A DNA stretch of 23,591 nt from a candidate division WWE3 bacterium CSP1-7 (GCA_001443395.1 LDXK01000006.1:1-23591), one strand, 5' to 3'. Counted from the first letter of the stretch, positions 1 through 23,591 are shown. Translations and numbers: made by a program. The notes: a model not told the origin generated them from the sequence alone.

Positions 1-938
1 TGGAGAGAATCCAGGAAATCGATGGTGTCGGCGTTGGCGGCGCTGATCGACAGGGTCGATTCGTCGATCTCAGCGGTGGTGAGGCAGTTGGCGCAGGTGC
101 CGATCTCATTGCCGAGATCAAGGTAGTAGCTTCCCGGCTGCCCTTCCAGGGTATCGGCATCCCCGCCGGTGGCGAGCCCCCCGCCCCCTCCCGTTCCTGT
201 CACCCCGGTGGTGGTGCCGGTGACGGTCAGGTTTTCAACGTTCAAGGAGGTGACACTGATAGCGCCAGAATTGACGCTATTAAAGGAGGCATCGCCGGTG
301 GGGGAGATGAAATAATCATCGCCATTTCCAAAGAAAACCGTCCCTAAGAAGCGGGCGGTGTTGAGAATCGCATCTTCGGCAACGTTCAGAGATTTTGCGA
401 AGAGAACCCCGATATCGACCGGAAATTTTAAACCCAGTCGAAGCTCTCCGGTCTCTGTTATCTTGTACTCTAGTGCATCATTGACATCCACGATCGGGTT
501 GGCTGGTCCAGGAGAAAAAGCCCTCTCTAATCGCATTTTGGTCAGAAGTGGGATGGAGGAAAAGAAGATATATCCGGTGAGAAGGAAGGTTAGCGCAAGG
601 GCGAAATGAAAGTAAGGACGAGGACGGCGAGGACGGTAGTTTTCAATTTGGCGAATGGGAATTAACGGCGGTGGGGGCGGGGTTACCGGATCGGGATTAA
701 GAGGAAGCGGGGGAAGCGTTTCAACTTCGGTATTTAAGCGCTGGTCTGTTTCTTTACGGAAGGATTGAAGGATATTTTGGATGTCTTCAGGAGAGAAGCG
801 GCGGTCGCCGCCGGGAGTGCGGGCGGGGGTAAGCCGGCCCTCGTCTTCCCAACGGCGGAGAGTAGTGGGGGATACCCCTAAAATTCGAGAGGCTTCAGTA
901 ATCGAATAGAGACTGGATTCGGGCAGAGCGTTATTCAT
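1..938 (-). CDS. MerR/excisionase-like HTH + single TM + extracellular domain protein (partial, runs off left edge); paralog of 21409..>23591
   Basis: Not in the ORF track; translated by hand from ATG at 938-936: MNNALPESSLYSITEASRILGVSPTTLRRWEDEGRLTPARTPGGDRRFSPEDIQ (MerR-type HTH), then a Pro-rich linker, RPRRPRP, TM YFHFALALTFLLTGYIFF, and NPIVDVNDALEY...NTARFLGTVFFGNGDDYFISPTGD...TCANCLTTAEIDESTLSISAANADTIDFLDSL. The frame stays open to position 1. Confidence 0.9.
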   Translation of the reverse strand, partial: MNNALPESSLYSITEASRILGVSPTTLRRWEDEGRLTPARTPGGDRRFSPEDIQNILQSFRKETDQRLNTEVETLPPLPLNPDPVTPPPPPLIPIRQIENYRPRRPRPYFHFALALTFLLTGYIFFSSIPLLTKMRLERAFSPGPANPIVDVNDALEYKITETGELRLGLKFPVDIGVLFAKSLNVAEDAILNTARFLGTVFFGNGDDYFISPTGDASFNSVNSGAISVTSLNVENLTVTGTTTGVTGTGGGGGLATGGDADTLEGQPGSYYLDLGNEIGTCANCLTTAEIDESTLSISAANADTIDFLDSL

Positions 939-1053
939 TTAGGTTTCCCTAAATGCTAGCGATCAAAAGATCGCGTCCATTTAGGCAGGTCGAAACCAAT
1001 CTTGCTGTATTTCCCATAGATAAGGGATTTGGCAAGTTTGGATAGCTACTTGA

Positions 1054-1083
1054 AAGTTAGCAAATTTAGCATCAGTGTGTCAA
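1054..1083 (-). promoter_or_regulatory. Putative sigma70 promoter of the left HTH gene
   Basis: Minus strand reads TTGACA-N18-TAACTT with a TGn extended -10. Confidence 0.55.
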
Positions 1084-1130
1084 GGATGGAATGATTGGGG
1101 CTTGACACCTGTGTGCTATTATCGCCGAAG

Positions 1131-3080
1131 ATGAAGCTGGTAATCGTTGAATCCCCGACAAAAGCAAAAACTCTCCAGAAGTTCTTGGGGGAGGGGTATG
1201 AAGTGCTCTCCTCCAAGGGACATCTGGTGGACCTTCCCAAAAAGAATTTGGGAGTGGATGTGGAGCACGATTTTACCCCCGAGTACGACCAGGTTCCTGG
1301 GAAAAAAGAGGTCATCACGGAGCTGAAAAAAGCGGCGGCCAAAGCCGAGGAGATTTTTCTCGCCACTGACCCTGATCGGGAGGGGGAGGCGATCGCCTGG
1401 CACATCAAACAGTTGATCGGGGACCACAAAACCAAACGAGTCGCCTTTCATGAGATTACGGAAGAAGCGGTGAAGGAGTCGTTCCTTGCGCCGCGGGAAA
1501 TTAACCAGCAGCTCGTGGATTCCCAGCAGGCCCGGCGGGTTTTGGATCGGTTGGTGGGCTACAAACTTTCCCCTCTCCTTTGGAAGAAGGTCCGGTACGG
1601 TCTTTCGGCGGGGCGAGTGCAATCGGTAGCGGTGCGGTTGGTGGTTGATCGAGAGAAGGAGCGCCAAGCCTTTCACCCCGAAGAATACTGGGAAATCCTT
1701 GCTAAATTGAGCGACAGCGGAGATTTCGAAGCGAAACTTCTCGAAAAGGACGGGGTAAAGATTGCGATTGGCAGCCAGGAAGATTCCGACCGGATCGCCG
1801 CGGAACTCAAAAAAGAGGAATATCTGGTCTCTCGAGCTGAAAAGTCGGAACGAAGACGCCATCCCTATCCGCCCTACACTACCTCCACTCTCCAGCAGGC
1901 CGGGGTGAATGTGCTGGGATTTTCGGGAAAGAGAACGATGCGCGCCGCTCAAGCGCTCTACGAAGCCGGTTTGATCACCTACCACCGAACCGATTCCACG
2001 GTGATCGGAGAGAAAGCTCTCGAGCAGATCCGCAACTTTATCGGGAAGAATTACGGTAGCAATTACTTGCCGGCGGATGCTATCAGATACAAGACCAAAG
2101 TGCGGTTGGCTCAGGAGGCCCACGAGGCGATTCGGCCTACCAAGGTTGAATTAACCGGAGAAAAGTTGGATGTCTCCGGGGACGAAAAGAAGGTCTACGA
2201 ACTGGTCTGGCGGCAGACGGTCGCTTCCCAGATGCTGCCGGCGGTCTATGAACAGGTATCGGCCGATATCCAGGCCGGTTCCTATCTTTTCCGAGCGACC
2301 GGATCGAAGTTGATTTTTGACGGTTGGGAGAGACTGAACAGGGGTGAAGAAGCGCGTTCCCTGCCGGAGTTGAAGGAGGGGGAGAAGCTGAAACTGCTGG
2401 AACTAGTTCCATCTCAGCACTTCACCGAACCACTAGCGCGCTATACCGAGGCCACTCTCATCAAAAAGCTGGAGGAGGAAGGAATCGGCCGGCCTTCTAC
2501 TTATGCGCCGATTATTTCGACGATTCAGGACCGCGGTTATGTTTCTAAAGAGGGGCGGGCGCTCAAGCCGGAGGATGCGGGGGGGATCGTCAATGACAAA
2601 ATCTTGGTTCCCTACTTCACCGACGTGGTGGATCTTTCTTTCACCGCCAAAATGGAAGAGGGTTTTGACGAGATCGCCCGCGGTGAAAAGAATTGGGTGG
2701 AGCTGATTCGGGGATTCTACGGGCCGTTTTCCCAAGAGTTGGAGAAAGCCGAAGAAAGTATTGATAAATCTTCGATGACCACGATCGCCGAAACCGATGA
2801 GAAGTGCCCCGATTCCGGCCACCCGCTGGTGATTAAACTTGGCCGTTACGGCCGGTTCTATTCGTGTACCGGGTTCCCCGAATGCAAATACGCCCGTCCC
2901 TATATTGAAAAGATCGGGATGAGCTGCCCGGATTGCAAAGAGGGGGAAGTGATTATTAAGAAGACCCGTCGGGGAAAGAATTTCTACGGTTGCAGTCGGT
3001 ATCCGGATTGTAAATTCGCAAGTTGGAAAGACCCCCGCCCATCCAAACCAGAAACCCCATCCGAAACCCCTTCTCCCTAG
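1131..3080 (+). CDS. topA: DNA topoisomerase I (type IA)
   Basis: MKLVIVESPTKAKT, LATDPDREGEAIAWH (TOPRIM), SAGRVQS, active-site ITYHRTDS, GIGRPSTYA and C-terminal Zn ribbons. Start moved to ATG 1131. Confidence 0.97.
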   Translation: MKLVIVESPTKAKTLQKFLGEGYEVLSSKGHLVDLPKKNLGVDVEHDFTPEYDQVPGKKEVITELKKAAAKAEEIFLATDPDREGEAIAWHIKQLIGDHKTKRVAFHEITEEAVKESFLAPREINQQLVDSQQARRVLDRLVGYKLSPLLWKKVRYGLSAGRVQSVAVRLVVDREKERQAFHPEEYWEILAKLSDSGDFEAKLLEKDGVKIAIGSQEDSDRIAAELKKEEYLVSRAEKSERRRHPYPPYTTSTLQQAGVNVLGFSGKRTMRAAQALYEAGLITYHRTDSTVIGEKALEQIRNFIGKNYGSNYLPADAIRYKTKVRLAQEAHEAIRPTKVELTGEKLDVSGDEKKVYELVWRQTVASQMLPAVYEQVSADIQAGSYLFRATGSKLIFDGWERLNRGEEARSLPELKEGEKLKLLELVPSQHFTEPLARYTEATLIKKLEEEGIGRPSTYAPIISTIQDRGYVSKEGRALKPEDAGGIVNDKILVPYFTDVVDLSFTAKMEEGFDEIARGEKNWVELIRGFYGPFSQELEKAEESIDKSSMTTIAETDEKCPDSGHPLVIKLGRYGRFYSCTGFPECKYARPYIEKIGMSCPDCKEGEVIIKKTRRGKNFYGCSRYPDCKFASWKDPRPSKPETPSETPSP

Positions 3081-3207
3081 GTTAATTCTCAGGATAAACC
3101 AGCAATCACCTAACATAGTATACTATAATTAATACAGTAGCCACCCTTTCTCTCTGGATCTTTTTCGTCGTGCTATCATAGACAAAATCTTATAAGAGGA
3201 GGGAGAA

Positions 3208-3894
3208 ATGTTGGTCGTCCTTTGGACGGTCCTGATGGTTATGTCCATTCTTGTGATCCACGAGGCCGGGCATTTCGTGATGGCCCTTCTGGTTAGACTG
3301 CCGGTGAGGTCTCTCCATCTCGGTATCCCCTTGGGGCCGCAGATCAGGACGAAGTTGGGAAAGTATCCGTTCACGATCTCACTCCTCCCTTTTGGAATGG
3401 CGGTGATGATCGACGAGGAAATGATGTGGAGAATACCACTGCCCAGGCGGGTGTTGGTTTTTCTCAGCGGTCCGTTTGCCAATCTCGCCGCGGCGATAAT
3501 CGTGTCTCTGGTCGTTTTTGGTCCCGAAGAGGGGATCAGGCGAGGTCTGGCAACGGTCGTCTTGTCGCTACTTGGTCCTCTGATGATCGCTACCGGACAA
3601 GTTCCGGTTAGCGACATTTCCGGACCGGTGGGGATCGTCTCGATCTCCGCGAGAGTAGTTTCGATCGCCCCGATCATTGGGACCGTGATGATGTTCACGA
3701 TCGTTTCGGCGGCCCTGGGGGCGATCAATCTTCTACCAATTCCCGGTTTGGATGGCGGTCAGATAATGATGCACAGCCTGGTCCGGCTGGGGATGCCGAA
3801 GAAATGGGAGCAGTGGTCCACCTACGGTTCTCTAACGCTGCTGATCGTGGGGATGATTTTGATCACCGTCAAGGATATCGTCAATCTGCTCTAA
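3208..3894 (+). CDS. Site-2 protease family (M50) membrane metalloprotease, no PDZ
   Basis: HEAGH, GPFAN and NLLPIPGLDGG motifs; hydrophobic; SD AAGGAGG upstream. Confidence 0.9.
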   Translation: MLVVLWTVLMVMSILVIHEAGHFVMALLVRLPVRSLHLGIPLGPQIRTKLGKYPFTISLLPFGMAVMIDEEMMWRIPLPRRVLVFLSGPFANLAAAIIVSLVVFGPEEGIRRGLATVVLSLLGPLMIATGQVPVSDISGPVGIVSISARVVSIAPIIGTVMMFTIVSAALGAINLLPIPGLDGGQIMMHSLVRLGMPKKWEQWSTYGSLTLLIVGMILITVKDIVNLL

Positions 3895-3922
3895 ACCCGA
3901 GATCCAACTTCTCGGGTTTTTT
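3893..3922 (+). terminator. Intrinsic terminator
   Basis: AAACCCGAGA-tccaact-TCTCGGGTTT followed by a T tract. Confidence 0.8.
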
Positions 3923-3928
3923 CTTGTC

Positions 3929-3957
3929 TTGACCTCGACTTGGGTGTAGATTAAATT
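3929..3957 (+). promoter_or_regulatory. Putative sigma70 promoter of Nudix-tmk
   Basis: TTGACC-N17-TAAATT. Confidence 0.5.
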
Positions 3958-3985
3958 TAACCGAAAAATAAGAAAGGAGATTGAG

Positions 3986-4405
3986 ATGCCTGCGAACGCC
4001 TCGAATCTCGAGGGAGTTTTTCTAGCTGTTCGGGCGGTGATAAACCGCGGTGGGAAGCTACTGATCCTGCAGCGGAACAGCTCCCACAACCGCAATCCTG
4101 ACCACTGGGAAGTTCCTGGCGGATTGATCGAGATCGGTGAGCCTCTCAATCTGGCCCTAAAGCGAGAGGTCAAAGAGGAGGCCGGTCTGGTGATCTCACC
4201 GCAATCGGCCGAATCACTGACCTTTATTAGTCCAAAAGCAAAACCGCGCTATCTGGAACTGATCTATCGCTGCAAGCGGGTACGGGGGGAGAAAGTGATT
4301 CTCTCCGATGAACATCAAGCTTTCCGTTGGGCGACAGTGGAGGAAACGCTCGATCTGGAGCTCACCCCTACCGCTCGAGCGCTGATGGAATTTCTTCTAA
4401 AATGA
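3986..4405 (+). CDS. Nudix hydrolase
   Basis: Intact Nudix box GGLIEIGEPLNLALKREVKEEAGL; SD AAAGGAG. Confidence 0.92.
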   Translation: MPANASNLEGVFLAVRAVINRGGKLLILQRNSSHNRNPDHWEVPGGLIEIGEPLNLALKREVKEEAGLVISPQSAESLTFISPKAKPRYLELIYRCKRVRGEKVILSDEHQAFRWATVEETLDLELTPTARALMEFLLK

Positions 4406-4414
4406 GGAGGAGCG

Positions 4415-5098
4415 ATGACTTACCAGCTTGAAGATTATCTCTTTGATTTGGTCCGAACGCTTCTTAAGGTTAATTCTCTTCCGGGGAAGCTGATCAGCTT
4501 CGACACGTTGGATGGAGGGGGGAACTCAACCCAAGTTTCTCTTTTGACGGAGCATCTACGAAGCCGCGGAGTAGATGTTTTGGAAACAAAGGAACCGACC
4601 GAGGAACACATCGGCCGGAGGATCCGGGCAATCCTGCGCCGTGAGGAGCGTCTGAGCGATCTTCCTCTCCAACTTCTCTTCTCGGCGGATCGGGGCGATC
4701 ATCTGGGAAAGTTAATCCTTCCCGCCTTGAAGAATGGCAAGTGGGTGGTTTCAGCCCGCTATGCGTTAACCACCGTGGCTTGGGGGTCGGGGCAGAAGGT
4801 TCCTTCTTGGGTTCTCCTGGCGGCTAATGCCTATTATCCTTGGCCAAACCTCAACATTGTACTGATGCTTTCAATTGAGGAGTGTCTACGGCGGATCTTT
4901 GCACGTGCTAAGCGGGCAACCGACAAGCTTGAGCTTTTTGAAACACGTGCTTACATGGAGGCGAACGAAGCTTCTCTCAAGCAGATGGCGAAGAAACTTC
5001 CCAACGTGGTGCTGGTGGACGGGATGGGAACGGAAGAGGAAGTCTCCGCCCGCGTTTGGAATCTCGTAGAAGAACGGCTTCTGCCCTTGGCATTGTAA
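4415..5098 (+). CDS. tmk: Thymidylate kinase-like protein with degenerate P-loop
   Basis: Tmk layout (GKLISF..DG.G.STQ, TKEPT, LLFSADR..H, ILPAL..GKWVVS.RY), but the P-loop reads TLDGGGNST and DRY reads ARY. Confidence 0.8.
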   Translation: MTYQLEDYLFDLVRTLLKVNSLPGKLISFDTLDGGGNSTQVSLLTEHLRSRGVDVLETKEPTEEHIGRRIRAILRREERLSDLPLQLLFSADRGDHLGKLILPALKNGKWVVSARYALTTVAWGSGQKVPSWVLLAANAYYPWPNLNIVLMLSIEECLRRIFARAKRATDKLELFETRAYMEANEASLKQMAKKLPNVVLVDGMGTEEEVSARVWNLVEERLLPLAL

Positions 5099-5105
5099 GA
5101 CTTTT

Positions 5106-5137
5106 AACCCCGGATTCTTAGGAATACCGGGGTTTTT
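5106..5137 (+). terminator. Intrinsic terminator
   Basis: AACCCCGG-ATTC-ttag-GAAT-a-CCGGGGTT followed by TTT. Confidence 0.8.
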
Positions 5138-5159
5138 CTTGTTTGCTACACTTTTTCTG

Positions 5160-5960
5160 ATGTTAATCGATGGGAAGAAAATTTCCGCCGAAATCGGATC
5201 TCGCTTAGCGAAAGAAATTCGCCGGCGCAAGGCCAAACCACGCTTGGCGGTGGTTCTGGTCGGGAACAATCCCGCTTCCCGAATTTATGTCCGGAAAAAG
5301 GGAGAAGCGGCCTCACGGGTGGGAATCGGATTTACACTTTACGAACTCCTGAACCCTTCCCAAAAAGAGGTTCTGATCTTGATTGGGCGGCTGAATGCGG
5401 ACCGAGAGGTAAACGGGATCATCGTTCAGCTTCCTCTTTCCAAAAAACTCGATGAGGAGTTGATTATTAGTCACATTTCTCCAGATAAGGACGTGGATGG
5501 GTTGAACCCCTTTAGCGATTTTACACCAGCGACCGCCGGGGCGGTTTTGGAAGTCCTGCAACGTCAGAAAATAAAAATCGCCGGTGCGCGGTCGGTGGTG
5601 GTGGGCCGGGGAAAGGTAGCTGGAATGCCGGTTGCCCTGGCGCTTTTGGCGAACGATGCGACCGTTACGATCGCTCATTCCAAAACCAAAAATCTGGCGG
5701 AGCTAACAAAACAGGCGGATATCTTAGTGAGTTCGGTTGGTCGACCAATGATGATCAAACCGGCGATGGTCAAAAAAGGCGCTGCGGTGATTGATGTCGG
5801 GATTTCACGGATGGGCGGTAAGCTTCGAGGTGACGTTGATCCGGCGGTTGAGAGGAGAGCGCGTTTCCTTACTCCGGTTCCCGGCGGAATTGGTCCACTC
5901 ACGGTCGTGAAACTTTTGGAAAACGTCATCCGCGCTTCCCAACTCCAAAGCACACGCTAG
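5160..5960 (+). CDS. folD: Bifunctional methylene-THF dehydrogenase/cyclohydrolase
   Basis: MLIDGKK, ASRIYVRKK (YxxxK), GIIVQLPL, KDVDG, VIDVGI and TPVPGGIGPLTV. Start at ATG 5160. Confidence 0.95.
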   Translation: MLIDGKKISAEIGSRLAKEIRRRKAKPRLAVVLVGNNPASRIYVRKKGEAASRVGIGFTLYELLNPSQKEVLILIGRLNADREVNGIIVQLPLSKKLDEELIISHISPDKDVDGLNPFSDFTPATAGAVLEVLQRQKIKIAGARSVVVGRGKVAGMPVALALLANDATVTIAHSKTKNLAELTKQADILVSSVGRPMMIKPAMVKKGAAVIDVGISRMGGKLRGDVDPAVERRARFLTPVPGGIGPLTVVKLLENVIRASQLQSTR

Positions 5961-6077
5961 TCTATATTTTGAGATCGCTTTTTTACTACATTAGTATACT
6001 ATTCGAGATTTTTAGATTGACGGTATCGTATAATTGCTCGGCTTTATAATTCTTCCTAATTCCCAAGGAGGGAGGAG

Positions 6078-6662
6078 ATGGGACGCCGTCGCCGCACCGG
6101 GCTTTTTGTCTTTACGGGCTGTATGTTTGCCGGCAAAACCGACCGGCTGATCCACGAGCTGGAGGTGCGGGTCAACCACGCCCACCAGAAGGTGCAGGTT
6201 TTTTCGCCGGCGATTGATACCAGGACCGGATTGGGAAACATCATTGCCAAGGACGGCTACCGCCATTCCTTCCCGGCCCAAACGATTGCCAAAGCTGCCG
6301 ATATTCTGGATCTCGTCGCGGAAGATACCGACTTAGTGGCGGTCGACGAGGCCCAGTTCTTAGACGCCGGTTTGGTTGGCGTTTGCCGAAGGCTGATGCG
6401 CCATCACGAGGTCTTCGTGGCGGGATTAGACACCGATTTTCGGGGCGAACCGTTCGGGCCGATGCCGGAAATTCTCGCGATCGCTCTGCGGGTGGAGAAA
6501 CTGGCGGCGATCTGTGTCGTCTGCGGCGAGGACGCCCACTGCACCCAGCGACTGGTGAACGGTCTGCCGGCGCACTACAACGACCCGATCGTTTTGCCCG
6601 GCGGCACCGCGGAAGGATACGAGGCCCGTTGCCTGCTGCACCATCGGGTTGAGAGAGACTGA
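6078..6662 (+). CDS. tdk: Thymidine kinase
   Basis: GCMFAGKT, VDEAQF, GLDTDFRGEPF and CVVCG...YEARC..H; strong SD AGGAGG. Confidence 0.95.
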   Translation: MGRRRRTGLFVFTGCMFAGKTDRLIHELEVRVNHAHQKVQVFSPAIDTRTGLGNIIAKDGYRHSFPAQTIAKAADILDLVAEDTDLVAVDEAQFLDAGLVGVCRRLMRHHEVFVAGLDTDFRGEPFGPMPEILAIALRVEKLAAICVVCGEDAHCTQRLVNGLPAHYNDPIVLPGGTAEGYEARCLLHHRVERD

Positions 6663-6668
6663 CTCCAC

Positions 6669-6702
6669 ACCCCCAGACGAAAGTTTGGGGGTTTTTCTTT
6701 TT
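6669..6702 (+). terminator. Intrinsic terminator (GAAA loop)
   Basis: ACCCCCAGAC-GAAA-GTTTGGGGGT followed by a T tract. Confidence 0.8.
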
Positions 6703-6764
6703 AAGCGGCCGCCCCTTTTGTCTGATATAGTTTAGAAAACCGAAAGAAAGAGGAGGAGAGGGAG

Positions 6765-7550
6765 ATGCGCAGAGTCGAACCGAAAGTGTTCCTGGTCGGA
6801 GAGACCCGCGTTGTGGAAGAAGGTCTGCAGGCTTATCTCGAGCACATCGGTGTTCCGGATTGGGAAACGGATGCACCCTCCGATGCGGAAAAGGTGGTCG
6901 AGGTGATGGGCCGGCTCTGCTATCGGAGCTTCGAGCCGGGTTTGAATCTCAACGTCACCAAGGTCCGGGAGGGGAGCGCGGCCTACCTCGGGAACATTCT
7001 CAAAGTCGCCCACGGATCCGTGATCGAGCACCCGGTGATGAATTTCATCTTCGCCGATGTTTCGCGGGTTTTCACCCACGAACTGGTGCGGCACCGGGCC
7101 GGAGTGGCGATCTCCCAAGAGAGCCTGCGGTTCGTTCGCTTGGACAGCCTTGGCCAGTGGCTGCCGACGGTGATTCGCGAAGATGAAAAGGCGATGGAGA
7201 TTTTCGCCCAGACATTTGAGCATTTGGAACACCTCCAGCATGTACTCGCGGAGCACTTCCACCTCGACGATCCCGGAACACCTTTCCACCGCAAGAAGAT
7301 CGTCACCTCCGCGATGCGCCGAATCGCCCCGGATGGTTTGGCCACGACCATCGGCTGGTCCGCCAATCCCCGTACCATTCGTTGGGTGCTGGAGATGCGG
7401 ACCGATCCTTCCGCCGAGGAAGAGATCCGGCTGGTCTTCGGCAAGGTCGGCGAGATCCTAGTGGGGCGTTATCCCAACCTCTTCGGCGATTTCACGGTTG
7501 AGATGGTAGAGGGTTTGCCCTGCTACCGTCCGGCTCACCGCAAGGTTTAG
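6765..7550 (+). CDS. thyX: FAD-dependent thymidylate synthase
   Basis: GRLCYRS, HGSVIEH and SRVFTHELVRHRAGVAISQESLRF (RHRx7-8S motif), plus EEIR. Confidence 0.93.
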   Translation: MRRVEPKVFLVGETRVVEEGLQAYLEHIGVPDWETDAPSDAEKVVEVMGRLCYRSFEPGLNLNVTKVREGSAAYLGNILKVAHGSVIEHPVMNFIFADVSRVFTHELVRHRAGVAISQESLRFVRLDSLGQWLPTVIREDEKAMEIFAQTFEHLEHLQHVLAEHFHLDDPGTPFHRKKIVTSAMRRIAPDGLATTIGWSANPRTIRWVLEMRTDPSAEEEIRLVFGKVGEILVGRYPNLFGDFTVEMVEGLPCYRPAHRKV

Positions 7551-7551
7551 A

Positions 7552-15862: not shown

Positions 15863-15891
15863 TTGCTTTTTTCAAATTTACATCCTATAAT
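15863..15891 (+). promoter_or_regulatory. sigma70 promoter of the tadG-tadE pair
   Basis: TTGCTT-N17-TATAAT. Confidence 0.7.
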
Positions 15892-15931
15892 AGTTGGAGT
15901 CAAAACCCATAAACGGAAAAGGAGAGAACCG

Positions 15932-16987
15932 ATGTTGGGATTTTTGCGACACTCGCGCTCCGAAAGGGGCCAGGCTCTGGTGCTTTTGGCCATCGGATTT
16001 ATGGCGCTGGCGGCCTTTGTGGGCCTGGCGATCGACGGCTGGCACTGGTACAGGGAAATCGATCGAGCCCGCCGCGCCGTCAATGAGGCCTGCGGCTACG
16101 CTGCCGCCGCGGTTTGGCAGGGAGGAAACGGCTTGGCCGCTTTCCAGAGTTCCCTGCAGGCGAACGGGATCGCTCCCGAGGCCTATGCGCCGAACGAGGG
16201 AACGGGTTTCGATCTCACCCGGGGCTACGAGTACGACGGCTACAGCCGCAGTATCTTCACCGCCCTCAAGTCCGATACCGAAACCTACTTCCTTCCGATC
16301 GTTGGTTGGAACACTCTGCCGGTGGTGGCGTGGGAGCGTTGTACCACGACCGGAGCGTTCATTAGCCCGGTTGCGGTTGACATTCTCCCCTTCCAAGATT
16401 CCTTGGATAATGGGACTTGGATCCATGTGGTGGGACAGGGAAGCGAAGCGCGGATTGACTCCGGCGCGAACTATCGCGGGGTGATCTTTCCCTTCATCTG
16501 GTGCGTGAACAGCGCTTCGGATTACACCCCGAACACCAACTGTCCCTACGCTGCGCCTTTTTGGCCGATCTCGGAATCCCCGCCTTCGGCCCAGACCGCC
16601 AAGAACGAATTAGCGGACTACTGCTGGGCGGGGCTCTGCAATCGCATCTTCACTCCGGTGGGGACGCGTCTGGCGACCGTTTCGGGAACCAGCAACAATC
16701 AGCTCTGCAAATCCGCGGTGGATGCCGGTTTGGTGCCGGGAACGGAGTTCGTCGCGATCATCTACGACGGCGAGGTGATTTCCCCGGATCCCAGCTACGG
16801 CGGATGGGAGAACATCGGCGTGCTGGGGTGGGGGAAATTCAGGGTCGTGGACCTCCAGCCCAGCACCAACAACTGCAATTCGCTGGTGGCCGTCGCCATC
16901 GGTGGAATCTACTCGAGTCTGCAGGAAATTCCGGGTCCGTTCAAGACCCGAGAGATTCCCTGGGACGCGCAAGGAGGTTGGTGGTGA
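15932..16987 (+). CDS. TadG-like Flp pilus pseudopilin with Cys-rich C-terminal domain
   Basis: RSERGQALVLLAIGFMALAAFVGLAIDG (Tad N-terminal motif) and TYFLPIVG. ATG 15932 follows SD AAAGGAG; the track start at 15863 overlaps the promoter. Confidence 0.8.
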   Translation: MLGFLRHSRSERGQALVLLAIGFMALAAFVGLAIDGWHWYREIDRARRAVNEACGYAAAAVWQGGNGLAAFQSSLQANGIAPEAYAPNEGTGFDLTRGYEYDGYSRSIFTALKSDTETYFLPIVGWNTLPVVAWERCTTTGAFISPVAVDILPFQDSLDNGTWIHVVGQGSEARIDSGANYRGVIFPFIWCVNSASDYTPNTNCPYAAPFWPISESPPSAQTAKNELADYCWAGLCNRIFTPVGTRLATVSGTSNNQLCKSAVDAGLVPGTEFVAIIYDGEVISPDPSYGGWENIGVLGWGKFRVVDLQPSTNNCNSLVAVAIGGIYSSLQEIPGPFKTREIPWDAQGGWW

Positions 16988-17397
16988 AAAAGAGAGAACA
17001 AGGCCAAGGCCTGGTCGAGTTTGCGCTGATTCTTCCCCTGCTGGTCATGTTGGTTCTGGGAATCTTTGAGACGGGGATGCTATTCAGTGATCTGGTCCAG
17101 GCAAACGCCAGCGCTCACAACGCGGTGCACGCCGCCGCCGTTCACATCGTGGACGGGTCGGGGAAGAGCTGCTATGACCGAGCGATGGAATCCCTGGGTG
17201 AGCCGGCCTTCCTCCTGGCGGAGGGGTCGATCTTCACGATCGAGCCCTGCTCGGACAACCCCTACTGGGTCGGTCCGATGGGCGCACAGGTGGTCGGTAC
17301 TTGGGAGTTTGTGATCGATCCCATCGATCCCATCTTCCACGACAACTTCGGTTTTCCGGTAACGGTTAACATGCAGTTCCGAGGAAACTTCCGCTAG
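16984..17397 (+). CDS. TadE family pseudopilin
   Basis: REQGQGLVEFALILPLLVMLVLGIFETG; GTG overlaps the upstream TGA (GTGA); SD AGGAGG. Confidence 0.88.
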   Translation: MKKREQGQGLVEFALILPLLVMLVLGIFETGMLFSDLVQANASAHNAVHAAAVHIVDGSGKSCYDRAMESLGEPAFLLAEGSIFTIEPCSDNPYWVGPMGAQVVGTWEFVIDPIDPIFHDNFGFPVTVNMQFRGNFR

Positions 17398-17407
17398 AAG
17401 GTGGGTT

Positions 17408-17452
17408 CAAAAAGAAACCCGCGAATCGGCAAGCCGATTTCGCGGGTTTTTC
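17408..17452. terminator. Terminator between convergent genes, possibly bidirectional
   Basis: AAACCCGCGAATCGGC-aa-GCCGATTTCGCGGGTTT with an A tract before and a T tract after. Confidence 0.75.
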
Positions 17453-17489
17453 ATTTCTAGTACCTTGATCAGAGTCGGAGGGATTGAAA

Positions 17490-19076
17490 CTACTCTCCCA
17501 CCGAAACGGCCCGAGCCTCACTCTGCTCTTCTTCGTTACCAGCTCGGAACCGTGCTCTAGCGTGTCTCGTGCCGGTTCCTCTGGTCATGTCTTCGCCCTT
17601 CTTTTGGCCGTCTTTTCCGGTGGCTAGCCGATGCGCCCGCTCCGAACCGCTGATCACCTTGTACTCGTGCATCCGCAGCGGTTCATCGATCTTCTGCAGG
17701 CACTCGGCGAGGATGTTCCAGTCGGAGTGAGCCAGGGCCGGCAGGGCCTTCGCCTCAAAGGACTTCCAAGCGGCGATCCAGTCCTCCGAGAGGGGAACTT
17801 CGTGTTCCTTGCCGTAGGAGTCCACAATCTTGCGGCGCATCTCTTCGGTCTTGGCGACGCGCTCTTGGATGGCCTTGACCTTCTTTCCCCGGTTGCGGAA
17901 CTCCCGGGCGAAGTCGGCCAGCTGGTTGAGCATCTCCCGAATGTCCACTAGCCGGCTCTTGAGATCAATCCATTCGGCGCTGCCCCAGAGGTTCGGGACA
18001 TCCTCGTGGAAGAGATAGGAGATCCGAACGGCCTGCGGCGGGGGATCAAACTCCCCAAAGTCCTCCTTGAGATGGTCGAGGGTCTCCAACACCTGTCCGT
18101 AGAACTGCCGGTCCTTAGCGACGGACTCGGCCCAGAACCGGAAGCCGTGCTGCAGGTCCTCGGCGGTCAGTTCCAGGGCGTTGATCTGGTCCTCGGTCGG
18201 GGCGGGTTTCCCGTCCCCCACCAAGGAGTCCATTTCCGCCAATCCTTCCTGGAGATAAGTCTCAACGGCCGCGAAAGGCAGCTGAGATTCGGGTTCGATC
18301 GGGTTATCGGCCTGCTCTTCTTGCAGCTCTGCGAAGGCCCGGTTGACATCTTCCCGAGCCATTCGGAATCGGTTCCGGATGTCTCGTTCTCCGGCGATCC
18401 GCTTGGCTTCCTTGTCTCGCTCTCGGAGCAGGTGGGTTTGGGCCGCGATCGGAGTTTCTTCGCCATCGACCGAGATGATCCGCTCGATCTCCCGGACGAG
18501 CTCATCTTGGGTGGCGACCAATCCTCGCAGCTGCTCGCGCAGGGCGGCGATTTTGGCGTTACGCGGATGGTGCAGGAAGCGGGTGTAGAAGAACCAGTTC
18601 ACCGCCAGCACCGCGTTCAGTACTTTCCTGGAAATCCAACTCACGTCGGCCACGAATTCCCAGGCCCACCGCCGGAGGCGCGGTTTGGCCCAGTCCTCTT
18701 TCTTGTCAAACCAGGCGGTCTCTTCAAATCGACGAATCCGCCAGCGGGAAGGATTGACCAGGTTCAGCAGCCACAGGGAGGTGAGCTGAACGGAATACGA
18801 CCACCAGTAGGTGTCGAATCCCAGTTCCTGCTCGCTGTAGGGGAGATTGGCGATCGCCATCCGGTAGCGGAGGGACATCGCCTCGATCCGCTGGTTTTGG
18901 CGCCGGATCTGATTCTTCAGCGAATTCCGGCTGAGGTAGATTTCAAAATCGAGCCGGGCTCGCTCCAGAAGATATCGGGGGAGCCACATGACCGCGTTAC
19001 CGATCTTGGTCAGAATGGGCCTCCAATCCGACTTTTTCGCCTTCGAGCTCTTTCGGACCGTGCGTTTCTTGCTCAC
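17490..19076 (-). CDS. Hypothetical coiled-coil protein (528 aa)
   Basis: Long ORF; GTG overlaps the upstream TGA; SD GGAGG; Trp-rich amphipathic N-terminal third followed by heptad-like charged helices. Confidence 0.8.
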   Translation of the reverse strand: MSKKRTVRKSSKAKKSDWRPILTKIGNAVMWLPRYLLERARLDFEIYLSRNSLKNQIRRQNQRIEAMSLRYRMAIANLPYSEQELGFDTYWWSYSVQLTSLWLLNLVNPSRWRIRRFEETAWFDKKEDWAKPRLRRWAWEFVADVSWISRKVLNAVLAVNWFFYTRFLHHPRNAKIAALREQLRGLVATQDELVREIERIISVDGEETPIAAQTHLLRERDKEAKRIAGERDIRNRFRMAREDVNRAFAELQEEQADNPIEPESQLPFAAVETYLQEGLAEMDSLVGDGKPAPTEDQINALELTAEDLQHGFRFWAESVAKDRQFYGQVLETLDHLKEDFGEFDPPPQAVRISYLFHEDVPNLWGSAEWIDLKSRLVDIREMLNQLADFAREFRNRGKKVKAIQERVAKTEEMRRKIVDSYGKEHEVPLSEDWIAAWKSFEAKALPALAHSDWNILAECLQKIDEPLRMHEYKVISGSERAHRLATGKDGQKKGEDMTRGTGTRHARARFRAGNEEEQSEARAVSVGE

Positions 19077-19399
19077 TTCTTGTTCCTCCTTGTTTGTTGT
19101 TGGAATCGCTTGTGCGCTTCCAGCATTGGTTGGACCCGGGTGTAGTAGAGATTGGCCAGGAATTTTTCCCGCCTTTCTCCCCTCATCCTTCTGATGTTTC
19201 TTTGTATCTCCTGCCAGTGGTATAGGAAAATCTGAGCCTCGGTTCCCAGGCCACTGTTTTGATACAGGGCGGCGATTTTTCGCAGCTCGGGGATGCTCTC
19301 GTAGATATCCTTGGAAGGGTTGTCTCTTCCGAATAACAGGACGAGAATCACCAAAATCGCCAGAACAGCGACCACCACAAACAGCGCCATCTGTTCCAT
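19073..19399 (-). CDS. Hypothetical protein with N-terminal TM anchor
   Basis: MEQMALFVVVAVLAILVILVLLFGR; SD-rich upstream; translationally coupled to the next gene. Confidence 0.75.
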   Translation of the reverse strand: MEQMALFVVVAVLAILVILVLLFGRDNPSKDIYESIPELRKIAALYQNSGLGTEAQIFLYHWQEIQRNIRRMRGERREKFLANLYYTRVQPMLEAHKRFQQQTRRNKK

Positions 19400-19421
19400 C
19401 TCCCTTTCCTCCTTCTACTGA

Positions 19422-19453
19422 TTTTGGGGTGCTGTCTCGCTTAACGCGAGTTG
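19422..19453 (-). promoter_or_regulatory. Conserved 32-nt leader hairpin motif, copy A
   Basis: 29/32 identical to 21123-21154; lies between the promoter and the SD. Confidence 0.7.
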
Positions 19454-19489
19454 CAATTTCGCTTTCGCGAAGGTGCGGAATCTCCTGTT

Positions 19490-19517
19490 ATTATAGGTTA
19501 CGTCTGTCTTTTGTCAA
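19490..19517 (-). promoter_or_regulatory. sigma70 promoter
   Basis: Minus strand reads TTGACA-N16-TATAAT. Confidence 0.7.
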
Positions 19518-19544
19518 AACCTATAGCAATATATGGGGAAAAGT

Positions 19545-19579
19545 AAAAAAGCCGGCGAGATCGTGTAGATTTCGCCGGC
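19545..19579 (-). terminator. Intrinsic terminator of the M23 gene
   Basis: Minus strand reads GCCGGCGAAATC-tacac-GATCTCGCCGGC-TTTTTT. Confidence 0.8.
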
Positions 19580-19586
19580 CCGTTGC

Positions 19587-21101
19587 TCATTGCATCTCTC
19601 TATCCGTAGTTTCGATCGAAGCTTCCAAGCGCTCGCTGATAAACCCGCGGACGTCAAGGAAGAAGCGATCGATCGTTTCCCGCGATTCCTCCGGGTAGTA
19701 CCAGGGGGTGTCCCGCAGGAATTTGTCGCAGGTCTCGCTGTAGGCAAGATCGAGGTGGAGGTGGGCGTAGAAGTTCGGGTCGCTTTCGTTGCCGCTCTTC
19801 CCGACTGTGCCGATGACATCGCCGATCTCGACCGTTTGGCCCCGCACCACGTCGATCTCGTTGAGATGGGCGGATCGGCTGCAGACCTCGGACCCCTCGG
19901 GGAGCCGGTGGCGAAGGACGACGATGTTTCCCAGTCCGGTGCCCACTCTTCCCGCGTAGAGAACTTCGCCCGTGCCGATGGCGACAACGGGGAAGCCCAG
20001 GTCTTCGTTTCCGCCTCCAACGTTGAAGTCCTCACCGATGTGGTAGCGGTCGATCCGTTCACCGGTCTCTCGATCCTGTTGGTTTTCCAGGTGTCGATAG
20101 CCGCCATAGGTTTGAACAGCGGTGGGGATGGGGTAGGCAAAGTTCTCCGCCACGGGCGTTTCTCTTCCGAAGAAGGCATCCATGAGCAGAAAGTACCCTG
20201 TTTCCGCCTCCCAATCCTGGATCTCCTTCGGGGTGAGGATTCGCGAGAGGTACTCGCGGATGGCGGAGAAGTAGTTCTCCACCGCCGCCTGGCGGTCTCC
20301 GTCCGGACCGAGAAACGATCCGAAGTAGAGCTGTTTGTCGGCCTCGCTCCCGCGCTCGAGCGCGATCAGGCCGAGATAGAAGCGAATCTTTGCGGCGGCG
20401 GCCAGTCCCAGGTCCCGGCTCGGGTCGCGGTTGTTCCCGTAGATCTCGCGGTTGTCGAAGATCTGCCAGGCGCTGATATCGTAGCGGCGGAGGGCCCAGA
20501 GGACCTCCACCAGATTTCCGAGCGATTCTTCTTGAAACTGCTCGTCAATCTTCACGATGATCGCCCGGCGTCGGATGCTGATCCCGGTTTCGTAGATCTC
20601 CGCCAGGGAAGTCCCGATCCCTCGGAAGCGGGGATCGCGGGAGACGGTCGTCGCCGAATAGACGAAGGGCTGACCGTGCTGCTTGTAGGAATCCCAGTCC
20701 ACGAGCGGTAGTTGCCAGATGACCGCCGGCGATCCGGAGACCTCCGGTTCCTTGGTCTGGGATACTCCGGCGGTGCTGACGGCAAAATGGGAGTAGCGGT
20801 AGAGATCGTCTGCGCTTGTATCGTTTGCGGTCTGCAGGACAACCACCCACGATGCGGACTCGTTCAGCTCCGCCGTCTCCAAGTCGGCCGGTCCTCTCAC
20901 CACGAGAGGACTTTCTTCCCAAACCGATTCCACCGGATTGAATCGGCGCAGATAGCCATCCGTTCCGATCCGGAGCGGGTCGGTCGATCCGATGATCCGC
21001 CGGGTTTCCTCGGGGAGCCTCTCGATCGAGAAGTTGGGCCAGACGGTGCTGGTCAGGATTGCCAGGACAGCGCCAAGCTGCAGGACAAGGATTGCATTCA
21101 C
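19587..21101 (-). CDS. Secreted/anchored M23 family peptidase with an N-terminal degenerate amidase-like domain
   Basis: C-terminal HIGED (HxxxD), VVAIGTGEV, GLGNIVVLRH, AHL, GDVIGTVGKSG and AHLHLD (HxH); N-terminal hydrophobic segment; GTG after SD GAGGAG. Confidence 0.88.
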   Translation of the reverse strand: MNAILVLQLGAVLAILTSTVWPNFSIERLPEETRRIIGSTDPLRIGTDGYLRRFNPVESVWEESPLVVRGPADLETAELNESASWVVVLQTANDTSADDLYRYSHFAVSTAGVSQTKEPEVSGSPAVIWQLPLVDWDSYKQHGQPFVYSATTVSRDPRFRGIGTSLAEIYETGISIRRRAIIVKIDEQFQEESLGNLVEVLWALRRYDISAWQIFDNREIYGNNRDPSRDLGLAAAAKIRFYLGLIALERGSEADKQLYFGSFLGPDGDRQAAVENYFSAIREYLSRILTPKEIQDWEAETGYFLLMDAFFGRETPVAENFAYPIPTAVQTYGGYRHLENQQDRETGERIDRYHIGEDFNVGGGNEDLGFPVVAIGTGEVLYAGRVGTGLGNIVVLRHRLPEGSEVCSRSAHLNEIDVVRGQTVEIGDVIGTVGKSGNESDPNFYAHLHLDLAYSETCDKFLRDTPWYYPEESRETIDRFFLDVRGFISERLEASIETTDREMQ

Positions 21102-21122
21102 TGTTTTCTCCTCTCAAATAGG

Positions 21123-21154
21123 TTTTGGGGTGCGGTCTCGCCTAAGGCGAGTTG
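21123..21154 (-). promoter_or_regulatory. Conserved 32-nt leader hairpin motif, copy B
   Basis: 29/32 identical to 19422-19453. Confidence 0.7.
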
Positions 21155-21164
21155 TACTTGGGAA

Positions 21165-21193
21165 ATTATACCCGGTATAAGCCCAATAGTCAA
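21165..21193 (-). promoter_or_regulatory. sigma70 promoter of the M23 gene
   Basis: Minus strand reads TTGACT-N17-TATAAT. Confidence 0.75.
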
Positions 21194-21314
21194 AGTATAT
21201 AGGTTACATATTAATTCCACCTCTGCAAACCCGAAGGGTTTGACGGTCGACTATCGAAGATAGCTAGCGACGCCAGTCACGTCCTTCGGCGACCTAGCAA
21301 TCCCACTCAGTTTG

Positions 21315-21344
21315 TTGACATCTACCTCCGGAAACTGGTAATCT
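21315..21344 (+). promoter_or_regulatory. sigma70 promoter of the right HTH gene
   Basis: TTGACA-N18-TAATCT with a TGn extended -10. Confidence 0.65.
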
Positions 21345-21408
21345 TACACTCAGATTAAGTAAACCTTTAAATTGCCTTAGCTAAGGCAGATTAAGGTGAC
21401 CTGTCCAA

Positions 21409-23591
21409 ATGAATAGCAGCCTGCCCGGCTCAACTGATAATCTTTATCCTATCTCTGAAGCGGCCCGCATTTTGGGCATTCATCCTTCTACCCTTCGTCT
21501 CTGGGAAAGCCAGGGTTTAATTTCTCCGGATCGTACTCCGGGGGGCGACCGTCGTTATCGCCTTGCTGATCTGCAAGATCTCTTAAGCCGCAAGAACGAC
21601 GGTCGCTTGAAAGAGAACGGCGGTGGAGTTCCGCCGGAAGAGCGCTCTTACACTATTTCCGAAGCGGCCCAGTTTTTGGGGGTGCATCCTTCAACCCTGC
21701 GGTTGTGGGAAGAGCAAAGGTTGGTGACCCCGTCCCGCACTCCCGGTGGCGATCGGCGCTTTAGTTTTAGGCAACTGGAAGATATTTTGCGCCGCCAGTC
21801 CGATGGCCGGCGGAAAGCCGAGGAGATAAAAGTCGCCGAGCCGGCTCCAAGGTCCTACGAGAAGATTAAAGTTCGCCAGCTCGAACACTACCAACTTCCC
21901 TCGCGGACGAGGCTGGCAGCAACGCGGGTCTTTATTTTGGGATTGGCAATCCTGGTTTCTTGGTTTGTCTGGAACTCGGTTCCCGACCTTACCAGGGAAC
22001 GGGTCAAGCGCGCTTTCGTTCCTGATATCGACAACCCGATTGTCGATGTGAATGACGCGCTAGAGTATGTTGTAGAAAACGATCGAGTGGCGTGGTTAAA
22101 GTCCAAATTTCCGTTTCTAACCGATTTTCTCAAAGTATCCCAGGATGCCCTTTTCAACACCGCCCGTTTCTTAGGGACGGTTTTCTTTGGAAATGGCGAT
22201 GATTACTTTATCTCGCCCACCGGGGATGCTTCCTTTAATAGCGTTAATTCTGGCACTATCAGCGTCCCCTCCTTGAACGTTGAAAACCTGACCGTTACCG
22301 GCACCACCACCGGGGTGACAGGAACGGGAGGGGGCGGGGGGCTCGCCACCGGAGGAGATGCCGATACCCTGGAAGGGCAGCCGGGGAGTTATTATCTTGA
22401 TTTGGGGAACGAGATCGGCACCTGCGCCAACTGCCTCACCACCGCTGAGATTGACGAATCCACTCTTTCCATTTCCGCCGCCAACGCCGACACCATCGAT
22501 TTCCTGGATTCTCTCCAGTTCCTTCGATCGGACGTGGGCGACACCGGCACCGGGAATTACATCTTCGAGGACGACGTTACCCTGGGCCTCTCCTCCGCCG
22601 ATACTCTGGTGATCAACTCTGCGATCGGTTCCGATCTGATCCCGGACACCAACGTCGAATATGATCTTGGTTCGGCCGGGATCCGCTGGGGCGTCGGTTA
22701 CTTTGACGAGGTGGTGGTGAATACCCTCTCCGCCGGTGCTTCCGACATCTCCGGTACGATCTCCTCGGACTTCTCGATCAACACCGACAACGCCTCCGCC
22801 GATATCCAGGACGCCACCCTTACCTTCATCCGAGGGACCGAATCCCCCAATGCCGTCCTCCGCTGGGATTCCACCAACGACCGCTACCGGTTTGAAAGTT
22901 TTCCGCTTTATTTGGATAGCGATCTTCTAGTTGCCGGAGGCACGATCGATCTTTCCAATTCGGCCAAAGCTGTTTCCCTCGCCAACGCGGCCAACGCGCT
23001 TAACTTCGATTCCGATACCCTCGTCATCGACGCTTTCAGCAACTTCGTTGGGATTGGAACGTCCACTCCCGGCACTCCGCTGGACGTGAACGGGAACATC
23101 AACGTCCAAGCCGGGAACAATTACGAGATTGACGGTTGGGCGATCATCGGCTCCGACGGCCTCGGCGACAACAACTACCTCTTCTCGGCCCAAGACTCGC
23201 TCTCGGTCCGGAACTGGCAGGACACCGCCGACCTGCTCGTGATCGAAAACGGCGGGGACGTGACCGTCGGGGGGGATCTCACCGTCAGCGGGGGGGAGAT
23301 CTTCCTCACTCCGATTACCTCCTCCGGATCGACGACCGAAGGCACGGTCTACTACGACTCCGACAACGACAAGCTCTTCGTCTACGCCAACGGGGCCTTC
23401 CAGCGGCTGGCGACCGACATGACGAAATACACCGCCACCGACACCGCCCTCGCCAACGCCGGCTACGTTGAGATCGCCCACAACCAATCGACCAACGACC
23501 TCTCCCTCACCGCCTGGTACTACGACAGCCTCCTCGGGCAATGGCGGACGATCGAGAACTTCACCACCGTCATCAGCCAAGACCTTCAGAA
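21409..23591 (+). CDS. Large surface protein with two tandem MerR/excisionase-like HTHs, single TM and beta-rich extracellular region (partial, runs off right edge)
   Basis: Not in the ORF track; translated by hand from ATG 21409: YPISEAARILGIHPSTLRLWESQGLISPDRTPGGDRRY and YTISEAAQFLGVHPSTLRLWEEQRLVTPSRTPGGDRRF, TM VFILGLAILVSWFVW, then adhesin/fibre-like sequence (YDLGSAGIRW, VGIGTSTPGTPLDVNGNI, GDVTVGGDLTVSGG, GTVYYDSDNDKLFVY). No stop seen over about 727 codons. Confidence 0.9.
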   Translation, partial: MNSSLPGSTDNLYPISEAARILGIHPSTLRLWESQGLISPDRTPGGDRRYRLADLQDLLSRKNDGRLKENGGGVPPEERSYTISEAAQFLGVHPSTLRLWEEQRLVTPSRTPGGDRRFSFRQLEDILRRQSDGRRKAEEIKVAEPAPRSYEKIKVRQLEHYQLPSRTRLAATRVFILGLAILVSWFVWNSVPDLTRERVKRAFVPDIDNPIVDVNDALEYVVENDRVAWLKSKFPFLTDFLKVSQDALFNTARFLGTVFFGNGDDYFISPTGDASFNSVNSGTISVPSLNVENLTVTGTTTGVTGTGGGGGLATGGDADTLEGQPGSYYLDLGNEIGTCANCLTTAEIDESTLSISAANADTIDFLDSLQFLRSDVGDTGTGNYIFEDDVTLGLSSADTLVINSAIGSDLIPDTNVEYDLGSAGIRWGVGYFDEVVVNTLSAGASDISGTISSDFSINTDNASADIQDATLTFIRGTESPNAVLRWDSTNDRYRFESFPLYLDSDLLVAGGTIDLSNSAKAVSLANAANALNFDSDTLVIDAFSNFVGIGTSTPGTPLDVNGNINVQAGNNYEIDGWAIIGSDGLGDNNYLFSAQDSLSVRNWQDTADLLVIENGGDVTVGGDLTVSGGEIFLTPITSSGSTTEGTVYYDSDNDKLFVYANGAFQRLATDMTKYTATDTALANAGYVEIAHNQSTNDLSLTAWYYDSLLGQWRTIENFTTVISQDLQ
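22154..22517 (+). repeat. Inverted repeat partner of 1-364
   Basis: The reverse complement of 1-364 aligns without gaps; 29 mismatches by manual count (about 92% identity). Confidence 0.93.

Follow-up and report, generated by a model that had tools for sequence, protein, structure and literature searches.

The window analyzed here, a 23,591-nt stretch of Patescibacteria (CPR) DNA from candidate division WWE3 bacterium CSP1-7 (GCA_001443395.1, LDXK01000006.1:1-23591), carries at its two ends a pair of divergently oriented, outward-facing paralogs, genes A and B, each encoding one or two helix-turn-helix (HTH) motifs, a transmembrane (TM) helix and a long ectodomain. The two genes share, in inverted orientation, a 390-nt coding block, and the identity of this block is best explained by repeated homologous recombination (gene conversion) between the copies, the same block having apparently served as a handle at which HTH-TM heads and ectodomain cassettes were re-assorted. 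We put the probability of this interpretation, which is drawn from sequence comparison, at roughly three in four. The genes, their domains and the repeat arms are located as follows.

3..938, minus strand: gene A, partial (312 amino acids, running off the left edge), with one MerR/BldC-like HTH, a proline-rich linker, a TM helix and an ectodomain
About 762-911, minus strand: MerR/BldC-like HTH of gene A (amino acids 10-59)
About 540-608, minus strand: TM helix of gene A (amino acids ~111-133), from Kyte-Doolittle (KD) hydrophobicity
1..390, minus strand: left arm of the inverted repeat, gene A amino acids 183-312, a predicted extracellular membrane-proximal segment (...NTARFLGTVFFG...GSYYLDLGN...DFLDSL)
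466..526, minus strand, paired with 22007-22067: weaker inverted match, encoding the family-wide NPIVDVNDALEY motif just outside the TM helix
21409..23589, plus strand: gene B, partial (727 amino acids, running off the right edge), with two MerR/BldC-like HTHs, a TM helix and an ectodomain
Gene B amino acids 13-58 and 81-131, plus strand: the two MerR/BldC-like HTHs
About 21910-21984, plus strand: TM helix of gene B (amino acids ~168-192), from KD hydrophobicity and an AlphaFold2 helix at 168-190
22128..22517, plus strand: right arm of the inverted repeat, gene B amino acids 240-369, gapless relative to the left arm and sharing its frame
22518..23589, plus strand: gene B past the arm, a type-1 variable cassette (amino acids ~376-620) and then a second conserved segment (amino acids ~620-727, GGEIFLTPITSSGSTTEGTVYYDSDNDKLFVYANGAF...)

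The inverted 390-nt block

A repeat search identified a single large inverted repeat in the window, in which positions 1-390 match the reverse complement of 22128-22517 over 390 ungapped nucleotides at 90% identity, with a spacing of 21737 nt between the arms. When the ungapped arms were compared in 30-nt steps, 21-30 of every 30 positions were identical from 390/22128 to the window edge, compared with 5-11 of 30 outside the block. Exact runs within the arms measured 56, 42 (window 1-42, reaching base 1), 41, 38, 29 and 28 nt, and the longest exact inverted match of 56 nt far exceeded that in base shuffles (n=30; maximum 15, mean 14.0). The arms differ at 38 of 390 positions, 29 of which lie within 1-364 versus 22154-22517, where 2 of 120 codons specify different amino acids; the same mismatch and amino acid counts, together with a sharp identity boundary, had been given for this interval in an earlier note on this DNA, and all were reproduced exactly. 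The homology is visible only to window base 1, its outer end lying beyond the window. The runner-up among 59 inverted pairs, 61 nt at 74% identity (466-526 and 22007-22067), falls within the same two genes and represents ordinary paralog conservation outside the homogenised tract.

Silent sites and the four-arm comparison

At four-fold degenerate sites in residues that are identical in A and B, 55 of 72 sites were identical within the block compared with 15 of 38 upstream of it (76% versus 39%; Fisher p=1.8e-4), base composition alone predicting an identity of 0.34. Similarly, 94 of 122 codons were identical in the block versus 28 of 70 upstream (p=4.4e-7). As a control, the window block was compared with relC and relD, two other paralogs from the related metagenome-assembled genome (MAG) introduced below, and this gave ~70% amino acid identity, a four-fold identity of 0.31-0.57 and a nucleotide identity of 0.63-0.73; the inverted match of relC to relD in the block extends over 174 nt at 76% and 55 nt at 82%. 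Since relC and relD keep the protein similarity without the silent identity, protein conservation alone does not yield 90% DNA identity. Codon bias or a nucleotide-level constraint as the cause of the arm identity was rejected by the same control.

Scanning of the species genomes in GTDB yielded 10 loci (12 confirmed out of 78 pattern matches) and with them a related contig, DATDSA010000045.1 (18337 nt, loci L003 and L001), from a MAG named 'Patescibacteria group bacterium'. The two ends of this contig bear one A-like and one B-like head, and colinearity with the window extends from the former through topA...M23 to the latter. It ends inside the block at both ends, the terminal 141 nt are identical between the ends, and k141 forms part of the contig name. 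De Bruijn assemblers are expected to leave a shared terminal k-mer at any inverted repeat of at least k nt; the shared 141 nt therefore indicate at least 141 nt of perfect arm identity in the related MAG and are uninformative on orientation. None of the 10 loci in the GTDB scan spans an arm into outside DNA.

The four arms available from these two genomes (winA and winB in the window, relA and relB in the related MAG) were then compared column by column. Upstream of the block the orthologs are closest, with 48/50 identities for winA-relA and 43/50 for winB-relB compared with 24/46 for winA-winB. Over block columns 64-199, the identity of winB is 90% with both winA and relA and 70% with relB, from which it appears clear that, in the lineage of the window, A-type sequence replaced that of the B copy. 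In columns 200-341, relA and relB are identical at 133/133 positions and winA and winB at 92%, compared with 84-86% between genomes, and within each genome the two arms have a 9-nt indel and several substitutions in common. Four-fold identity in the block was 0.79 and 0.75 within genomes versus 0.63 and 0.56 between orthologs, an order that is reversed upstream. Because the arms within each of the two genomes are more alike in the block than the orthologous arms are, they appear to be undergoing concerted evolution, having recombined after the lineages of the window and the related MAG split. Tract boundaries differ among the window, the proteins P0003/P0007 and the related MAG, and the sharp boundary at 390/22128 would be the end of one conversion tract. 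The earlier note had read this boundary as a trace of past conversion or recombination, a reading borne out by the silent-site contrast, by the grouping of arms by genome in the related MAG and by the lineage-specific tract ends. Past recombination or conversion within the 390-nt block is, on these alignments, well supported.

The amino acid identity of the colinear genes between the window and L003/L001 is uneven, ranging from 97-98% for tdk, thyX, rpsB and tsf and 94% for topA down to ~69% for unknown open reading frames (ORFs) and 53-64% for NUDIX, tmk and DHFR. This uneven divergence may reflect unequal constraint or recombination between lineages.

The protein family and its mosaic members

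A search of 5.8 billion proteins returned 30 matches at E<=1e-3 among the 8000 candidates scored, and the named matches among the 30 belong to Patescibacteria, WWE3, Saccharibacteria or Kazan. When 1.84 billion representatives were searched exhaustively with HMMER, 27 proteins passed E<=1e-30 and 3213 passed E<=1e-3; the less significant matches mostly cover only the ectodomain region 380-570, which is recurrent in very long proteins. A and B, which are 62% identical overall and near-identical from residue 190 of A onward, thus appear to belong to a small, lineage-restricted family characterized by one or more HTHs in the head, a single TM helix and a long ectodomain.

The N-terminal HTHs of both proteins exceed the Pfam cut-offs for MerR, MerR_1 and HTH_17, with scores of 50.9 bits (PF13411) and 48.1 bits (PF00376) for gene A and of 84.8 and 97.9 bits, respectively, for gene B, which has two copies. 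The best NCBIfam resemblances of the heads are to HspR, BldC and excisionase-type HTHs, of which only the 'excise' domain passes its family cut-off; the full-length regulator models of NCBIfam are all far below theirs. Neither Pfam nor NCBIfam detected in A or B the C-terminal coiled-coil dimerisation or effector-binding domain of MerR regulators, and a search of PDB sequences matched the HTH only (including 6ama/6amk 'putative DNA-binding protein', CarH and GlnR). In both proteins a single hydrophobic segment follows the HTHs (KD 1.88 and 2.13 for A and B) with basic residues on its N-terminal side and, taken with the AlphaFold2 helix, this predicts that the HTHs are cytoplasmic and the remainder extracellular. 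The AlphaFold2 model of gene B, built on a 21-sequence alignment, had a mean predicted local distance difference test score (pLDDT) of 43.5 and was confident only for the HTHs and TM helix, the ectodomain being unusable with pLDDT <50 over residues 200-644.

Longer relatives carry tail-fibre-type C-terminal chaperone domains, namely Peptidase_S74 in P0035 (57.9 bits), K1-lyase_C in P0034 and, below the cut-off, Peptidase_G2 in P0037, and a LamG domain is also present among them. The C-termini of A and B lie beyond the window, and the chaperone domains are known from the longer relatives alone. A tblastn search with P0002 against 50,697 phage records gave no match, and the papers listed in a literature search included none on a membrane-tethered HTH-TM-fibre family or on inversions in Patescibacteria.

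Evidence for mosaic family members comes from protein sequences, taken apart from their DNA and gene context. Two head haplotypes are seen among six close B-head proteins, one (P0002, P0004 and P0006) being that of the window and the other shared by P0003, P0005 and P0007. Ectodomain type 1 is found on the window protein and P0003, and type 2, an unrelated cassette, on P0004-7, such that each haplotype occurs with each ectodomain and all four gametes are present. The block has two variants, 'FNS...', which is A-like, and 'FAG...', the form in relB, and these too occur in all four combinations with ectodomain type. Type-2 cassettes also occur on A heads: sub-allele 2a is carried by P0006 (B head) and P0016 (A head), and sub-allele 2b by P0004 and P0005 (both B heads) and P0015 (A head). 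In addition, P0012, which has an A head, bears a third cassette; P0017 joins a third head type to long pieces nearly identical to the type-1 cassette and the distal conserved segment of the window; and the second conserved segment of gene B (amino acids ~620-727) has high identity with relatives that bear other heads and cassettes.

The head and ectodomain combinations seen are therefore B with type 1 (window, P0003), B with type 2 (P0004-7) and A with type 2 (P0015, P0016). Among 17 matches to gene B amino acids 370-727, none combined an A head with a near-identical type-1 ectodomain, the pairing predicted for the flipped state; the sole near-identical match, P0003 (97%), has a B head, and P0008 and P0012, which have A-like heads, bear only type-1-like pieces. 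The swapping of heads and ectodomains envisaged in the earlier note has a counterpart among natural proteins, in that close relatives do pair the same heads with different ectodomains. These combinations support the view that exchange took place at the block several times among near-identical strains, re-assorting heads and cassettes.

A 239-amino acid database fragment, P0046, is 100% identical to gene B amino acids 1-239 and ends one residue before the block (window ~22126); a break in the contig could account for this end, as could another junction located at the tract boundary.

Recurrence of bracketing pairs

The related MAG has a second pair of family members, L002:1-1389(-) and L002:9554-11692(+), one with two HTHs and the other with one, which brackets genes for sortase, ndk, argS, a metallo-beta-lactamase (MBL)-fold protein, comEC, comEA and leuS and has an inverted block match of 76-82%. 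Family members also occupy both ends of a Saccharibacteria contig, L006 (L006:2-322(-) and L006:9368-12331(+)). The ORFs between them encode 181, 554, 290, 300, 129 and 871 amino acids, compared with 181, 554, 291, 301, 127 and 831 in L002 and, judged by these sizes alone, the two layouts appear to be the same. Finally, an A-like gene lies beside topA in another Saccharibacteria contig, L005. Given the second pair, the L006 layout and the gene next to topA in L005, the bracket arrangement appears to be old and conserved, recurring at two loci across genomes.

Conversion, inversion and alternative explanations

In the mechanism that we favor, two divergent paralogs built of HTH head(s), a TM helix and a long ectodomain would have their shared membrane-proximal coding block kept alike by repeated gene conversion between the two copies, one tract of which, ending at 390/22128, would have overwritten the B copy with A-type sequence. 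The block would also act as a crossover handle at which HTH-TM heads are re-paired with ectodomain cassettes among very close relatives. The exchange is presumably RecA-type and intragenomic and, by analogy with tufA/tufB, reciprocal events that invert the 21.7-kb block would arise alongside the conversions.

Several observations count against this mechanism. The arms have diverged by 8-10%, with a Jukes-Cantor (JC) distance of ~0.28 at four-fold sites, and one 30-nt patch has seven mismatches, with a serine there encoded by AGC in arm A and by TCC in arm B, which points to old or imported sequence inside the tract. Together with a longest exact run of 56 nt, this divergence implies that the last homogenisation was not recent and that exchange is rare. 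Neither RecA nor any other recombination gene is encoded within the window, and the left flank of gene A lies beyond it. Among the mosaic proteins, several ends appear truncated or noisy (P0003, P0015), assembly chimeras at the repeat are a possible source of some of them, and the four-gamete pattern within B could have come from allelic recombination between strains rather than from exchange between A and B.

The 5' ends of the two genes are bordered by two intergenic regions.

939..1094, no strand assigned: divergent A-topA intergenic region, inside the bracketed segment, with a TTGACA box readable on the A strand
21102..21408, no strand assigned: divergent M23-B intergenic region, inside the bracketed segment, with TTGACA-N17-TAATCT readable on the plus strand

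For both genes, the 5' end is complete and lies inside the bracketed segment, together with the start codon and the head, and from the position of these 5' ends we infer that the promoters are there as well. A consensus promoter scan called no promoter for gene A in 939..1094 and none for gene B in 21102..21408, where the sole promoter-like site is on the minus strand at 21193-21165 and directed toward M23. Because both genes keep their own 5' ends, a flip would turn nothing on or off and would only re-pair heads and fibres.

Inversion of the 21.7-kb topA...M23 block is plausible by analogy, since tuf inverted repeats invert in up to half of their recombination events. The further proposal that a live inversion polymorphism exists, in which recombination between the arms flips topA...M23 without a dedicated recombinase and re-pairs the one-HTH and two-HTH heads with the ectodomains outside, we consider possible and somewhat doubtful. 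Its geometry fits, in that the heads are within the segment and the arms are gapless and in the same frame, so that exchange in the block would leave both genes in frame, as the earlier note had anticipated. A flip would need no independent events to place both head haplotypes with both ectodomains and the type-2 sub-alleles on A and B heads; the arms bear the marks of conversion, a process that in tuf takes the form of inversion in up to 50% of events; and divergent two-HTH/one-HTH pairs bracket a second housekeeping block in the related MAG and, by ORF sizes, in the Saccharibacteria contig. However, no relative supplied DNA running from an arm into an outside flank, the related contig stopping in both arms; an A head on a near-identical type-1 ectodomain is missing from the 17 matches, among which only P0003, with its B head, is near-identical; and with both genes predicted to be expressed in either state, no on/off phenotype would follow. 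The degree of arm divergence also argues against frequent flipping and, together with the retained 5' ends and the fact that non-reciprocal conversion explains the data equally well, it makes the phase-variation-like switching put forward in the earlier note too strong a claim. A programmed phase switch is unsupported.

It is also conceivable, and in our judgment unlikely, that the mosaics arose mainly through allelic recombination between strains, by uptake of foreign DNA at A or at B, with the block acting as the nearest homology and exchange between A and B being minor. The four-gamete patterns among B-head proteins require no A copy, the divergence between the window and the related MAG is uneven from gene to gene, as described above, and the related MAG carries comEC and comEA; yet allelic recombination fails to explain why arms group by genome, why the first part of the winB block is A-type, or why the same type-2 sub-alleles sit on A and B heads. 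A programmed site-specific inverton or shufflon of the Hin/Gin/Rci or Ureaplasma mba/UU172 type would also place inverted repeats within surface-protein genes so as to bracket the DNA between them, but we regard it as very improbable, because the arms are 390 nt of diverged coding homology with scattered mismatches rather than a short conserved site, tract boundaries vary between lineages, and none of the 22 ORFs scanned in the window matched a recombinase family, five ORFs having no family at all; the earlier note had likewise seen no site-specific recombinase in the window. There is a similarly slight chance that the block reflects an old duplication under strong purifying selection with no recombination between the copies. 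Such selection would suit the two amino acid changes in 120 codons and the family-conserved motifs in the block, but not silent sites that are much more alike in the block than upstream, arms that group by genome, or other paralogs that retain the protein motifs with saturated silent sites. That the window contains an assembly artefact, either a false palindromic join or a collapsed repeat, is scarcely credible: the left arm stops at the window edge and assemblies do fail at repeats, but an independent MAG shares the A...topA...M23...B layout, an A-like gene adjoins topA in L005, and arms that differ at 38 of 390 positions do not represent one collapsed copy.

The bracketed housekeeping genes

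The DNA between the two paralogs contains the following genes.

1095..21101, no strand assigned, first part: topA, M50 peptidase, NUDIX, tmk, folD, tdk, thyX, DHFR, an unknown protein of 346 amino acids, rpsB, tsf and frr
1095..21101, no strand assigned, second part: RseP-like M50/PDZ, a 1157-amino acid FG-GAP protein, an unknown protein of 91 amino acids and Tad/TadE-like
1095..21101, last part, these on the minus strand: unknown proteins of 528 and 108 amino acids and M23 peptidase

Rfam and tRNA scans of the window found nothing. The 1157-amino acid gene (12004-15477; FG-GAP, Ig-like and CarboxypepD_reg) contains five to six internal repeats of ~228-237 nt each, and both this gene and the M50 peptidase gene at 3208-3894 are missing from the otherwise colinear related contig. 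Two short elements occur twice within the bracketed segment. A 39-nt sequence with a GC-rich hairpin and a T run is present at 8057-8095 and 9142-9180 (90% identical), flanking the 346-amino acid ORF (8091-9131), and the copies look like a reused terminator module. A 37-nt motif with an internal hairpin is present at 19422-19458 and 21123-21159 (86% identical), just upstream, on the minus strand, of the 108-amino acid ORF and the M23 gene, respectively; the minus-strand promoter-like site at 21193-21165 (11/12 matches) precedes the second copy, and the motif may be a shared leader or regulatory element.

Two gene boundaries within the block call for comment. In 9943-10921, EF-Ts is short (150 amino acids) and the longest frr ORF (10013-10921) overlaps its gene; because of this overlap, and because the RRF match covers only amino acids 140-300 of that ORF, the true start of frr is probably near 10430. 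In 15863-17397, two long ORFs in different frames, 15863-16987 and 16501-17397, share 487 nt, leaving the gene boundaries uncertain. A TadE domain is found at amino acids 168-212 of ORF 16501-17397, which the related contig matches in two pieces, and a weak Tad match is found in ORF 15863-16987.

Implications for surface variation in Patescibacteria

Patescibacteria are mostly uncultured, many live attached to other cells, and little is known of how their surfaces vary. The locus described here offers sequence-level evidence that a membrane-spanning HTH-fibre family evolves via segmental recombination at a defined conserved block, with new head/fibre combinations among near-identical strains as the result. 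Moreover, since repeats break short-read assemblies exactly at the block, HTH-fibre genes would be systematically truncated in MAGs. If the segment does flip, a TM DNA-binding module would be shuffled between sensors or adhesins without a recombinase, and a block that includes topA, rpsB, tsf and frr would be periodically reversed. A more general and rather improbable extension is that Patescibacteria bracket pairs function as a head-swap switch, in which recombinase-free recombination in the stalk flips the block and re-pairs DNA-binding heads with fibres. Such a switch, if real, would diversify the attachment fibres of an episymbiont and also rewire the signal from each fibre to the chromosome.

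Comparison with known systems

Like members of the MerR family and BldC/HspR-type proteins, A and B have an N-terminal MerR-type HTH but, unlike canonical MerR regulators, they continue from the HTH into a TM helix and an ectodomain of >500 amino acids, and are therefore predicted to be membrane-tethered. In the S-layer (sap) system of Campylobacter fetus, inversion is RecA-dependent and takes place in a conserved 5' region, moving one promoter between otherwise silent homologs to give antigenic on/off switching. The arrangement here resembles sap in having oppositely oriented surface-protein paralogs that consist of a conserved part and variable 3' parts, with recombination exchanging the variable part. 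It differs in that each gene retains a 5' end of its own and a whole head, so that both are predicted to be expressed either way, and in that the conserved block is internal, after the HTH and TM helix, whereas the conserved part of sap is at the 5' end. Passages of PMC3887049 describe recombination and exchange among the C. fetus sap homologs as frequent. In the Ureaplasma mba/UU172 system, as outlined in PMC3047005, inverted repeats in paralogous surface genes are the sites of inversions that couple an N-terminal module with different C-terminal parts, and chimeric genes can result. The two cases are alike in having inverted repeats inside paralogous surface-protein genes and new N- and C-terminal combinations, but the Ureaplasma system is site-specific at short defined repeats and alternates expression, whereas here the homology is long and diverged and the window yielded no recombinase.

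In mechanism, the parallel is with tufA and tufB of Salmonella enterica, inverted copies for which sections of PMC5485169 report concerted evolution by recA-dependent conversion and sections of PMC6735719 report that up to 50% of recombination events invert the intervening DNA, with a fitness cost. In both cases two copies in inverse orientation on one replicon bear conversion tracts formed by homologous recombination. The tuf copies are, however, near-identical over their entire 1185 nt (12 differences), encode the same protein and lie ~760 kb apart, whereas here the copies are 21.7 kb apart and only an internal 390-nt block is homogenised, with divergent modules flanking it on both sides, so that exchange, unlike that in tuf, creates new head/fibre combinations. 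With these differences, the mechanism that we favor for genes A and B would work in the manner of tuf-type concerted evolution.

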